Source: an uncultured Mollicutes bacterium (lineage in GTDB: Bacteria; Bacillota_I; Bacilli_A; RF39; UBA660). Taken from it: DNA of 64,000 nucleotides. Where the stretch lies: the NCBI GenBank assembly GCA_946500425.1, contig CAMMVQ010000001.1:15056-79055 (forward strand), in the 5' to 3' direction. The notes below the pieces were generated by a model. It saw only the letters and a program-made list of their open reading frames with translations. It searched no databases and was not told the DNA's origin. Below are positions 16,325 through 19,369 of the stretch, piece by piece; the stretch's first letter is position 1, and each line of letters starts with the position of its first letter. Both the position numbers and the translations under genes were made by a program.

Positions 16325-17254
16325 ATGAAAATAGTGGTGAAAGATAAAAGTGATATGTTTTCTTCTTTAGAAGGAAAGAATTATGATGATATTTTGAGAC
16401 GTTATACCAAAAGCTTGTTTGATAAAATAATCATTAAACCTGGTTGCTTAAGTTGTGATGAAATTTATGATTTATGTACTTATTTAACCAAAGATATAAT
16501 ATTACGTTCAGCTAATGGAAAAACACCGTTTTTACAAGCAATTTCACTTAAAATTATAAAACTATCTAAGGCTTTGAATAACGAGGATCGTCTTTTAACT
16601 AGATATTATCAAAAAATAGAGCCCAGTGAGAAGATAGTTGATTATTTATCTTTAAAGTACGCTTATTTATTAGATAAATATAAAAACTTGGGATGCTATG
16701 ATAAACTTGTTTGCCAATTTAAAAACATTATCAAAGATGTTATCACTTCATTAAGGGTGATTAATTTAAGCATTGAGCCGAATTTAAAAGTTTTTCTTTT
16801 GAAAAATGCTAAAGAAATTAGGTGGGATGATGAGTATGTTATTCCAGATTTAAGAAAAAAATTTAATAATAAGTTTAAAGATAAGATTGATGAATGTTTT
16901 TTAGATGAATTAATTATGTTTTATATAGATGAGTATAAGAATGCTTATTTAGCTGGAAATTCGAAAGTAAGCTTAAAAGAATACCTAATAACGCGGTTAC
17001 TTGATGCTCTTAAAAAACATATTATTAAGGTTGATAGGATTAACGAGAAAATAGAGGGATTAAACTTCCACAATATTCCAAGTAATGTCATTGATAGCTG
17101 GATTAACAATTATGCAATTACTCATTCACTTTGGGTTAGTGACGTAAGAACTTATATGTTTAAACAGGTGCTTAATTATTCTTCTGATGATTATGATAGG
17201 ATTATTAAATTTAAAGAAGGAAAAAAACTTAAAGTGTTATCTAGAAAGAAATAG
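16325..17254 (+). CDS. Hypothetical helical protein, paralogous to the 18203..19369 product
   Basis: Shares blocks with the downstream paralog (KIIKLSKALNNEDRLLTRYY vs RIIGDSKALTEEKLLMYY; NLGCYDKLVCQFKNIIKDVITSLR vs GLNCYAYLSSVFKEDLKEILSSLKR). Confidence 0.5.
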   Translation: MKIVVKDKSDMFSSLEGKNYDDILRRYTKSLFDKIIIKPGCLSCDEIYDLCTYLTKDIILRSANGKTPFLQAISLKIIKLSKALNNEDRLLTRYYQKIEPSEKIVDYLSLKYAYLLDKYKNLGCYDKLVCQFKNIIKDVITSLRVINLSIEPNLKVFLLKNAKEIRWDDEYVIPDLRKKFNNKFKDKIDECFLDELIMFYIDEYKNAYLAGNSKVSLKEYLITRLLDALKKHIIKVDRINEKIEGLNFHNIPSNVIDSWINNYAITHSLWVSDVRTYMFKQVLNYSSDDYDRIIKFKEGKKLKVLSRKK

Positions 17255-17320
17255 ATTTTATTTTTAAAACTTTTATTATATAATATATTTACTTATAAAG
17301 CTTTAGTTAGTAGGTGTGGT

Positions 17321-18190
17321 ATGAATCGAAAAAATGGTTTTATAATCTTAGAAGACGAGGTTGATTATACTCATAAATCCAGTAAGTATTTATATTCAAC
17401 GTTAAAAGGAACCATAGTATTAAAAGATAATGAAAAATATTTTTATAAACGAATTAGGAAAGATTGTTGCTACCGTGAGTTAATAGCATCCGAGATTGCT
17501 AAGATTTTAGAAATACCTTGTTGCGATTATGATCTTGCACTGATTCCAAAGCTTAATGGATATGATTTTGGCGTTATTTCTAAATGGTTTAAAAAGGCTG
17601 ATTCTAACTATTATAATGGTAAACAAATAATTGAAGATTATTATGAAGGGATTTTAAAACGAAAGGTACTTGATAACGTTAAAAAAGCTAATTACGTTTA
17701 TAATAATCTTGAGGTGATATGGAACGCGTTTGAGCACCGTTATAGGTTTGAAAAGAACAAGGAAGATTTGATTAGTAGTTTAATGCTGGAATTAATAGTT
17801 AGGTTTTGGTTCGCTTATTTAATTAGAAATACTGATTTTCACTTTAAGAACTGGGAAATAGAAGAAACTAAAGATAAGGTTTGTTTAGCGCCTTCTTATG
17901 ATAACGAGGACATGTGGGAAGCATATGGTTTTTCTAATTCAAAGTTTACGGTAAATAAATATAACAATAATTTTAATACGAATGCTAATCTTCTTTTAAC
18001 GCAGATAGATAGTAATGACGCGAACAAACTAATAAATCTTTTTTACAAATATAATCCAGATAATGTCTTATTAGCTTTTAGTATGGTTGAAGAAAAGATA
18101 GGTTGCTCGATTGAAGACGATTTAAAAAGTCTTTTACTTGATGATTTTAATAGGTGTTATAAGAAAAATTTGCGAATTATAAAAAGATAA
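17321..18190 (+). CDS. HipA_C-domain-like putative Ser/Thr kinase (short, HipT/CtkA-sized)
   Basis: Catalytic-loop-like RNTDFHFKNWEI followed by LAPSYDN. Compare E. coli HipA GNTDAHLKNFSL ... LAPAYD. Confidence 0.55.
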   Translation: MNRKNGFIILEDEVDYTHKSSKYLYSTLKGTIVLKDNEKYFYKRIRKDCCYRELIASEIAKILEIPCCDYDLALIPKLNGYDFGVISKWFKKADSNYYNGKQIIEDYYEGILKRKVLDNVKKANYVYNNLEVIWNAFEHRYRFEKNKEDLISSLMLELIVRFWFAYLIRNTDFHFKNWEIEETKDKVCLAPSYDNEDMWEAYGFSNSKFTVNKYNNNFNTNANLLLTQIDSNDANKLINLFYKYNPDNVLLAFSMVEEKIGCSIEDDLKSLLLDDFNRCYKKNLRIIKR

Positions 18191-18202
18191 CACTAGAAAG
18201 GA

Positions 18203-19369
18203 ATGAAGATGAGAAAAAATATTAATAAATTAGTAGCTTTAAATACTAAACATAGTATTAACGTGGTGTTGGATCATTACTCAAATATGTTTTATAACAA
18301 AATAGTTAACGTAACCAAAGTATTAAGTGAAGCCCAGCTAAAAGAGTTTTCAAGAAACTATGTAAGTATGCTTATTGATAAAACAAAAAAGTATGATGGT
18401 GATTTTGCTAAGCTTATGGTAATTAGAATAATAGGTGATTCCAAAGCTTTAACCGAGGAAAAACTTTTGATGTATTACTGTATTTACTCTGGTGTTAATA
18501 GTAAAGTTTTAAATTATTTTTTTAAAAGATGTTGTCATTTGTTAGATTACTATGTTGGACTTAATTGTTACGCTTATTTATCATCGGTATTTAAAGAGGA
18601 TTTAAAAGAGATTCTTTCATCTTTAAAACGAGCTACCCCATCGGTTGAAATTTTGGCTAAAAATCGTCTTAACGAGAGGTACAAAGCCTTTGAAACTGAC
18701 TATGACACAATGAGAAAAAACGTTTTTAATCGTTATAAAAATCTTATCGATAATAACATTTTATTGGCACTAATTGATGATGAGATAAAAGAGTGCTTGA
18801 AGATTTATGCCGATAAAACCGGGCACTTAAAGAAAAAAGACATTAGTTTTAAAATGTATACTGATTTAGAAAAGTACTTATTAAGAAAGAAGACGGAAGA
18901 AACGTATGAAGCGTCCATTATTTTGGAAAAAGAAAGAAATGCTAATTTAGTAGAAATGGCGTTAATTTCTTTTAATGGTTTTTATCCTAACGACAAAGCT
19001 TATGATGAACTTTACGGTTATTATGATTCTCAAATAGTTAAATATTACGAACGAAAAAGAAACGTGTCAGTTAAAACTTTTCTTTTAAATTCTTTATACT
19101 ATAAAGTTCAAAAGATGAATGATAAGTATGGCACGAGAAAAGACGTTCTTTCTTTAAAAAAGAAAATAATAGAAAGTGGCGTTATTAGAAGTGATTCTTT
19201 TTCGGAAGTTTATGATAACTGGGCTAATTACTACATGGAATCTTATCCTTTAAGGGGTGTTACTTTTAGGGAATTTGCTTTGATAATGTTAACTTGTTAT
19301 GATAAAGAAAGTTATGATGAAATTTTAAAAGTAAAAGAAAAAAATAAGTGTTTAGTGTTAAAACGTTAG
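18203..19369 (+). CDS. Hypothetical helical protein, paralog of the 16325..17254 product
   Basis: See the paralogy blocks above. An alternative start at 18209 has better RBS spacing. Confidence 0.5.
   Translation: MKMRKNINKLVALNTKHSINVVLDHYSNMFYNKIVNVTKVLSEAQLKEFSRNYVSMLIDKTKKYDGDFAKLMVIRIIGDSKALTEEKLLMYYCIYSGVNSKVLNYFFKRCCHLLDYYVGLNCYAYLSSVFKEDLKEILSSLKRATPSVEILAKNRLNERYKAFETDYDTMRKNVFNRYKNLIDNNILLALIDDEIKECLKIYADKTGHLKKKDISFKMYTDLEKYLLRKKTEETYEASIILEKERNANLVEMALISFNGFYPNDKAYDELYGYYDSQIVKYYERKRNVSVKTFLLNSLYYKVQKMNDKYGTRKDVLSLKKKIIESGVIRSDSFSEVYDNWANYYMESYPLRGVTFREFALIMLTCYDKESYDEILKVKEKNKCLVLKR

Follow-up and report, generated by a model that had tools for sequence, protein, structure and literature searches.

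CtkA is a short, core-only HipA-like kinase with no adjacent antitoxin, a secreted effector of a Gram-negative pathogen that is encoded in a plasticity zone. In the scheme of Gerdes et al. (PMC8262856) Hip kinases are classed by their genetic context, and each of the short kinases of clade XI has so far been found with a recognisable putative antitoxin, namely HipN, HipS, HipP or HipR. We analyzed a stretch of 64,000 nt of DNA from an uncultured Mollicutes bacterium (the window) and, within it, the feature at positions 16325-19369, which was described in an earlier note and was confirmed here as three open reading frames (ORFs), named A (309 aa), K (289 aa) and C (388 aa), all on the + strand between a murD-like gene and miaB. 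Our analysis identifies this locus as an unusual context for a Hip kinase, built around a variant of a known toxin kinase, and not as a self-contained mobile cassette. The explanation we prefer, with a probability of about 60%, is that the interval holds a resident array of sigma-2-like proteins and that the HipA-type kinase gene K was acquired between two of its members without HipN.

The comparison that carries this explanation concerns the slot between murD and miaB in related genomes. When 1.84 billion representatives were scanned in full by HMMER with a profile of A and C, 25 distant relatives of 199-500 aa and one marginal match of 720 aa were found; their source names read only 'hypothetical protein', and one came from the metagenome-assembled genome of a 'Bacilli bacterium'. 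Eight relatives (P0007, P0012, P0005, P0009, P0047, P0010, P0024 and P0027) were placed on contigs, where they represent eight distinct loci, and all eight fall in a single slot with the organization murL-murD-[1 to 6 family genes]-miaB-ylbF ... tyrS ... rnj. The slot holds one family gene in L033, L035 and L036, two in L031, L040 and L042, two with a non-family Ig-like surface protein of 829 aa in between in L037, and six in tandem in L039 (1-6691, a single 6.7-kb contig). Searches with hidden Markov models (HMMs) found no kinase and no HipN in these eight loci. Because relatives of A and C occupy the slot without a kinase at 8/8 loci, A and C are best regarded as residents of the lineage and K alone as the insertion, and the proposal that a three-gene cassette had been inserted into a core context was not borne out. 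The proteins encoded around the slot are 80-82% (MiaB), 84-85% (TyrS), 68-75% (MurL) and 53-59% (YlbF) identical to those of the window, and MurD is 66-70% identical in L031, L033, L035, L036 and L037; the slot proteins are just 23-30% identical. The A/C family is fast-evolving, tandemly expanding and lineage-resident. The slot also accepts unrelated insertions, as seen in the Ig-like protein of L037 and in an ISL3 transposase in L038.

A second line of evidence comes from a sister lineage. L004, a 1.7-kb contig from another sample, encodes a kinase 71% identical to K, preceded by the C-terminus of an A orthologue and followed by the N-terminus of a C orthologue, so that the order A-K-C is kept and the arrangement must be older than the divergence of the window and L004. 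The search for the same synteny that had been recommended for related genomes thus had a divided outcome, with the order present in L004 and the kinase missing from the eight other loci. The ratio of nonsynonymous to synonymous divergence (dN/dS, Nei-Gojobori) against L004 was 0.12 for K, 0.26 for the N-terminus of C and 0.34 for the C-terminus of A, at synonymous divergences (dS) of ~0.8-1.4, the value for K (~1.4) being near saturation. The reading frame of K is intact in both lineages (289 and 288 aa). K is under purifying selection that is stronger than the selection on the flanking genes, and it is not a decaying remnant.

The features of the locus are given below in window coordinates.

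14829..16247, + strand: murD-like gene for UDP-MurNAc-L-Ala--Glu ligase (TIGR01087 murD, 329.7 bits), the upstream boundary of the slot
16239..16265, + strand: terminator-like hairpin with T-run where murD ends, upstream of the array
16270..16298, + strand: promoter-like site of the sigma-70 type (TTGCCA-17-TAATAT) ahead of A, by consensus match only
16325..17254, + strand: A, 309 aa, slot-resident family with predicted sigma-2-like repeats, modules m1, m2, m3 and m5, without m4
17321..18190, + strand: K, 289 aa, predicted short Ser/Thr kinase core of the HipA superfamily, HipI/CtkA-like
18203..19369, + strand: C, 388 aa, same family as A, five modules
19411..20844, + strand: miaB, the downstream boundary of the slot

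The three genes share one strand with the murD-like gene upstream and miaB downstream, and the spacers are 66 bp (A-K), 12 bp (K-C) and 41 bp (C-miaB); tyrS is encoded 2.5 kb downstream. The hairpin at 16239-16265 is the sole terminator-like site in 15800-19900, a scan in which none was found after C, between C and miaB. It overlaps the stop codon of murD and is therefore the terminator of murD, upstream of A, and not a terminator belonging to the cassette, as had been thought. Promoter-like sites in the region are no more numerous than in shuffled sequence, which makes the candidate ahead of A weak evidence. The GC content is 26-29% within the cassette and 27-34% around it, with no compositional break, and neither flanking repeats marking an insertion nor an integrase or other mobile-element hallmarks were found around the cassette. 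A search inside the cassette for a hidden small antitoxin ORF or RNA gave no further ORFs of at least 60 aa and no Rfam matches at E<=1.

K contains the HipA-type signatures reported for the central protein (LIRNTDFHFKNW and LAPSYDN), and its match to the Pfam family HipA_C (PF07804), at residues 152-219, is marginal (31.3 bits, cut-off 30.5). It also matched the PADLOC model PDC-M03A (1e-17, best 62.5 bits) and phrog_8728 (1e-10). When a kinase profile of four sequences (K, its 71% identical relative P0002 and two phage homologues) was compared with solved structures, it matched CtkA of Helicobacter pylori (3akj) at E=6.4e-12 over nearly the full length (profile 32-293 against chain 32-284), followed by HipT(Lp) (8ezr, E=6.5e-6) and by HipA chains. 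By its sequence profile, the fold of K is predicted to be a kinase core of the HipA/CtkA type. The protein aligns from the kinase core onward and has no N-subdomain 1; the absence of that subdomain and of a HipB partner had already been noted, and it agrees with the core-only alignment and with the lack of any helix-turn-helix (HTH) family match. Alignment with 17 HipI kinases showed that K keeps K43 as the ATP lysine, E53 as the helix glutamate, D194 as the Mg-binding residue and the catalytic D172-x-H174-x-x-N177-W178; of these, K43, E53, D172, H174, N177 and D194 are conserved with CtkA as well. The Gly-rich loop G-x-x-x-[ED]-K reads THKSSK in K and NQKSSR in the 71% relative, so that the conserved Gly is gone in both, with the Ser residues beside the loop of K kept. 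Relative to HipI, ~26 residues after the Mg-binding YDNE are deleted and an insertion precedes the catalytic helix; relative to the 17 related kinases, the L-I-G-N motif has R for G. We take K to be a probably active Ser/Thr kinase, and its similarities mark it as a remote outlier of the HipI group that has no partner.

The relatives of K show what is missing at this locus. A tblastn search of phage records returned a 289-aa HipA-domain protein in the C. difficile phage phiCDKH02 and further matches in small Vibrio prophage-like elements, and in all of these a HIRAN-domain gene lies directly after the kinase and an integrase is nearby. A scan of GTDB representative genomes gave relatives at 24 loci (21-33% identity), and a scan of viral contigs gave five more (27-31% identity). 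At nearly all 24 genome loci and in two phage records, an ORF of 229-256 aa comes within ~0-30 bp after the kinase, the exceptions being truncated contigs and one weak partial match, and 10/10 tested downstream ORFs carry Couple_hipA (HipS-like) and HIRAN domains, the composition of HipN. Kinase followed by HipN is the hipIN organization of Gerdes et al. 2021 (PMC8262856) and the PADLOC candidate defence system PDC-M03, whose bona fide members reach 430-464 bits with the kinase (A) models and ~350-363 bits with the HipN (B) models.

No such partner accompanies K. An HMM of 14 HipN proteins, including the HipS-like domain, found no match in the six-frame translation of the whole window, and no HipB-like, HipS-like or HipN-like ORF was found in the cassette or in that translation. 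A and C gave no score with the PDC-M03B models and no Couple_hipA match; neither they nor the small ORFs matched an HTH family, and C showed no similarity to the phage HipN. The candidate that C is a diverged HipN was ruled out, since no BLASTP or HMM similarity was found and C is modelled as all-helical and not as HipS+HIRAN. No support was found for A as a HipR/Stl-like protein. Searches for relatives of K on plasmids, and of K or the A/C family in JGI metagenome contigs, returned none, and word-indexed searches with K, A and C returned self-clusters only, plus the one 71% relative of K. A peptide pattern matching K exactly, run over the GTDB species representatives, found no near-identical locus and only distant HipI loci, whereas NCBI records the cluster of K on an 87.7-kb contig; either the species is not represented there or its representative does not carry K.

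The window contains a second HipA_C-like ORF, a solitary gene of 298 aa at 29870-30766 on the - strand, flanked by typA/bipA (27983-29821) and by a pyruvate:ferredoxin oxidoreductase-like gene (30895-34299) and oriented divergently to the two. It matched the kinase profile (3e-9) and PADLOC PDC-M03A (4.8e-10), with no Pfam or PDB sequence match, and shows the motifs LIDNKDRFPHN, in which D and N stand at the canonical spacing and H is replaced, and PLFDNG. No HipN-like partner was found for it, so that together with K the genome holds two partner-less short Hip-like genes.

The proteins on either side of K had been called mutually paralogous and unrecognisable, and the first of these statements was upheld by BLASTP (E=5e-11, 27% identity over 175 aa, with a C-terminal block at E=6e-6). 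The second stands for sequence families, given that neither A nor C had a significant match in Pfam, NCBIfam, PADLOC or PHROGs, but fold and profile evidence points to repeats of the sigma-2 domain of sigma factors. The A3 HMM of the family matched A at 8e-73 in two pieces. The proposed structure modelling of the flanking proteins succeeded for one of them: the AlphaFold model of C, from a family alignment of 26 sequences, is all-helical and confident (mean predicted local distance difference test score, pLDDT, 84.4; predicted template modelling score, pTM, 0.51), and the model of A, from an alignment of A and C only, is poor (pLDDT 38, helices only) and unusable. The sigma entries listed with the C model are SigK, RpoE, RpoS region 2, SigW and SigC. 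As is expected for a multi-domain helical model, Foldseek searches of PDB and BFVD returned no significant match to the C model; sigma chains appeared at E ~2-6 only.

Profiles were more informative. About 15 family members have ~90 extra N-terminal residues (for example ELVEKAKNGDDKAF..L..HY), and this extension aligns to residues 3-84 of SigW (hmmsearch E=0.017; hhalign probability 89% with a single sequence); its remaining PDB sequence matches are likewise region 2 of extracytoplasmic function (ECF) sigma factors. Repeats were tested by profile-profile comparison (hhalign) of blocks of the family alignment, with probabilities of 86% for the N-terminal extension against m1, 94.5% for the extension against m3, 95.9% for m3 against m4 and 77% for m1 against m3. 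The modules m1 (residues 3-84), m3 (163-233) and m4 (234-316) of C are mutually homologous, and two other helical modules are present; from these block matches we take C to comprise three sigma-2-like repeats and two other helical modules. In the 26 family members no Sigma70_r2 or Sigma70_r4 Pfam match was found, nor any sigma-4 or other HTH save a weak N-terminal HTH_16 match in four long forms. Fold and profile together argue for the sigma-2 domain in A and C, and by this modelling we count the sigma-2-like fold of C as established. For the two we prefer the name sigma-2-repeat proteins to that of sigma factors. A and C may bind RNA polymerase, as their predicted fold suggests, and within the libraries and literature searched the family is undescribed.

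Further observations were made in and around the slot. The Ig-like protein of L037 (4388-6877) has a transmembrane anchor and a weak Ig_2 match and lies between two family genes, and the ISL3 transposase (430-1716) of L038, a variant of the L037 locus, lies upstream of a family gene. A 539-aa gene of L040 was considered as foreign cargo and rejected, as it proved to be a very divergent member of the A/C family. Two paralogues lie outside the slot, one of 370 aa between tyrS and rnj in L033 (13320-14432, A3 HMM 3e-16) and one of 336 aa between tdk and murL in L036 (3114-4124, A3 HMM 5e-9), both matching the A3 HMM in several partial repeats; none was found outside the slot elsewhere in the window. 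No member of the family was found in viral contigs or in the plasmid collection searched. A second region that varies lies between ylbF and tyrS (window 21167-21850, with a 143-aa ORF at 21438-21869). Compared in the window, L031, L033, L035, L040 and L042, it holds different unannotated ORFs in each genome, elsewhere of 197 and 139 aa, 275 aa and 132 aa; L040 has a YhcG-like nuclease plus three ORFs there, and L042 a glycosyltransferase.

Upstream of the slot, a gene for a MurL-like UDP-MurNAc-L-Ala-L-Glu epimerase overlaps murD (window 13493-16247; NCBIfam MurL 236 bits, below the equivalog cut-off). The relatives of this MurL-like protein have the Pfam domains MurL_N and MurL_epimerase_C, and the murL-murD pair is kept across the whole clade. 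As judged from these matches, the pair points to peptidoglycan synthesis by the MurD2/MurL L-Glu route in these Bacilli. Two T-box leaders were found at 6328-6514 and 63554-63752 (113.9 and 142.9 bits, above the Rfam gathering threshold).

In the explanation we prefer, fast-evolving proteins with sigma-2-like repeats would form a lineage-specific tandem array in the slot between murD and miaB, in a clade of gut-type Bacilli that are uncultured and AT-rich. K, a single gene whose closest kin are the HipI toxins of the mobile hipIN/PDC-M03 modules, would have been acquired between two array members in the lineage of the window and in the 71% identical sister lineage, and would have arrived, or survive, without HipN (HipS-like + HIRAN). 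A, K, C and possibly miaB would be co-transcribed from a promoter region behind the terminator of murD. Since K is kept without a cognate antitoxin, it must be either non-lethal or held in check in some other way. K may be intrinsically non-lethal, as is assumed for the solo kinases CtkA and HipH/YjjJ, or may be restrained by something else, for which gene C, tightly coupled downstream, would be the most obvious candidate as neutraliser, regulator or substrate.

We give roughly equal odds to functional coupling of K with A and C and to their mere co-residence in a slot that tolerates insertions. The tight K-C spacing at the place that HipN has in the relatives, the shared strand, the lack of an internal terminator and the need of a toxin-derived kinase for some control speak for coupling, whereas the function of the A/C family without K elsewhere, the readiness of the slot to take unrelated insertions and the lack of sequence similarity to any known Hip partner speak against it. 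Several points weigh against the explanation as a whole. A gain of K, as opposed to a loss, is the parsimonious choice given two lineages with K and eight loci without it; the interaction of K with A and C is putative, and co-transcription is deduced from spacing and from the lack of a detectable terminator. The fold of K is assigned from sequence profiles, and with the Gly-loop glycine lost and ~26 residues deleted its kinase activity is not assured.

The earlier note had read the locus as a possible toxin or regulatory module, and such a reading is possible in more than one form. In a three-component toxin-antitoxin or abortive-infection module, K would be a translation-blocking toxin kinase and C, A or both would replace HipN as antitoxin or sensor, with K freed when a phage-encoded sigma- or RNA-polymerase-binding protein titrates the sigma-2 mimics. 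The nearest relatives of K are indeed toxin-type HipI kinases on prophages and integrative elements beside integrases, nearly all of them with a coupled downstream partner whose position C fills, 12 bp after K; the order A-K-C has been kept in a lineage at dS >1; very fast evolution and tandem expansion, both seen in the A/C family, are frequent in conflict-related genes; and an analogous phage-sensing antitoxin, the Stl-like HipR, has been proposed for HipF/HipG by Gerdes et al. (PMC8262856). However, A/C genes occur without a kinase in the same slot at 8/8 other loci, so that their primary role is not that of an antitoxin, A and C are unlike HipS, HipN, HipB, HipP and HipR in sequence, the cassette has no mobile-element hallmarks and the viral and plasmid collections searched contain no member of the family. 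We regard such a module as unlikely. We give still less credence to a more specific form, in which A and C serve as sigma-2 decoys or guards and keep a HipI-derived K inactive until a phage protein binds the decoy, or, in a milder variant, in which K is the first HipA-type kinase with a sigma-like substrate. If the guard version were true, the freed K would shut down translation or transcription when a phage attacks a sigma factor or RNA polymerase, and the locus would represent a Hip kinase defence system of a new class, with a sigma-mimic in place of the HipS/HIRAN antitoxin.

The predicted sigma-2-like modules of A and C also allow a kinase-substrate pair, in which K phosphorylates A and/or C and thereby switches their interaction with RNA polymerase or some other partner, in the manner of ECF43. 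There is a precedent in PknT, whose gene adjoins that of the sigma factor EcfP, ECF43 being activated by the adjacent Ser/Thr kinase; PknT phosphorylates a Thr in region sigma-2.2 of EcfP and so provides the negative charge that RNA polymerase binding requires (PMC8999054). In the A3 alignment an L-[S/T]-acidic motif is widely conserved within module m1, and by the SigW alignment this motif would lie roughly at the sigma-2.2 acidic patch. Yet the conserved S/T-x-x-E could be a mere helix-capping box, the kinases known to phosphorylate sigma factors are of the Hanks type and not of the HipA type, and the characterised substrates of the HipA family are the aminoacyl-tRNA synthetases GltX, TrpS and LysS (PMC8262856). 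The homologues of A and C function without K in related genomes, no sigma-4 domain was detected in A or C and their binding to RNA polymerase is putative, all of which leaves this pairing improbable. Least probable of all is that K is a decaying or dead pseudokinase, the remnant of a hipIN module after the loss of hipN and without present function. The lost Gly-loop glycine, the Arg in place of the loop lysine in the 71% relative, the deletion of the ~26-aa segment after the Mg-binding motif and a Pfam score barely over threshold would fit such a remnant, but two lineages at a dS of ~1.4 both keep an intact frame, of 289 and 288 aa, the dN/dS of 0.12 is below that of the flanking genes, and all catalytic and Mg/ATP-binding residues are retained.

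Under the explanation of a kinase gene acquired within a resident array, K is a selected-for, core-only Hip kinase that persists chromosomally without HipN, HipS, HipP or HipR, and its persistence without a known partner implies either the domestication of a toxin or a new kind of partner. The A/C family, unannotated, fixed in the murD|miaB slot in 1 to 6 copies and diverging about as fast as conflict-related genes, offers a concrete target for non-sigma uses of the sigma-2 fold. The locus also illustrates that a paralogue-X-paralogue pattern can stem from insertion into a resident tandem array and not from a mobile three-gene unit. Among the loci compared here K alone varies: the whole unit is not present or absent together, no compositional or repeat boundaries set it off, and no integrase accompanies it.

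Compared with the known systems, the lack of fit with HipBA and HipBST that had been pointed out is confirmed, as neither HipB nor HipS is present, and it extends to all ten Hip organizations catalogued by Gerdes et al. 2021, of which A-K-C matches 0/10 (PMC8262856); the gene context of K is not that of HipBA, HipBST, hipIN, hipJS, hipMP or hipRG/RF. K shares its catalytic core with the kinases of HipBA and HipBST, a three-gene locus with HipBST and the absence of the ~100-aa N-subdomain 1 with HipT (PMC8262856). A and C, unlike HipS and HipB, are 3-4 times larger, all-helical in prediction and mutually paralogous, and unlike HipBA the locus has no adjacent HipB HTH protein and its kinase lacks N-subdomain 1. 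A helical protein of a few hundred residues directly upstream of a short Hip kinase recalls hipRG/hipRF, with their upstream Stl-like HTH antitoxin HipR. From sigma-70 and ECF sigma factors A and C differ in that they would consist of several tandem sigma-2-like modules and not of sigma-2 plus sigma-4, occur in tandem gene arrays, diverge extremely fast and are not filed as sigma factors. CtkA (3akj) is the best solved-structure match of the kinase profile at low sequence identity, but K has no evident secretion signal and no evident context like that of CtkA. With hipIN/PDC-M03, K has in common its core-only build, its length of 289 aa within the HipI size class (279-321 aa), the ATP lysine, D-x-H-x-x-N-W and the Mg-binding Y/F-D. 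It differs in having no HipN in the cassette or the window, in scoring 62.5 bits against 430-464 for members, in a Gly loop without glycine, the ~26-aa deletion and the insertion before the catalytic helix, and in its place in a chromosomal core-gene slot and not beside an integrase. Taken together, these similarities describe K as a divergent member of the HipA superfamily that appears closest to the short kinases of clade XI (HipI) and to CtkA, and under the context-based scheme of Gerdes et al. its locus would count as a further organization.

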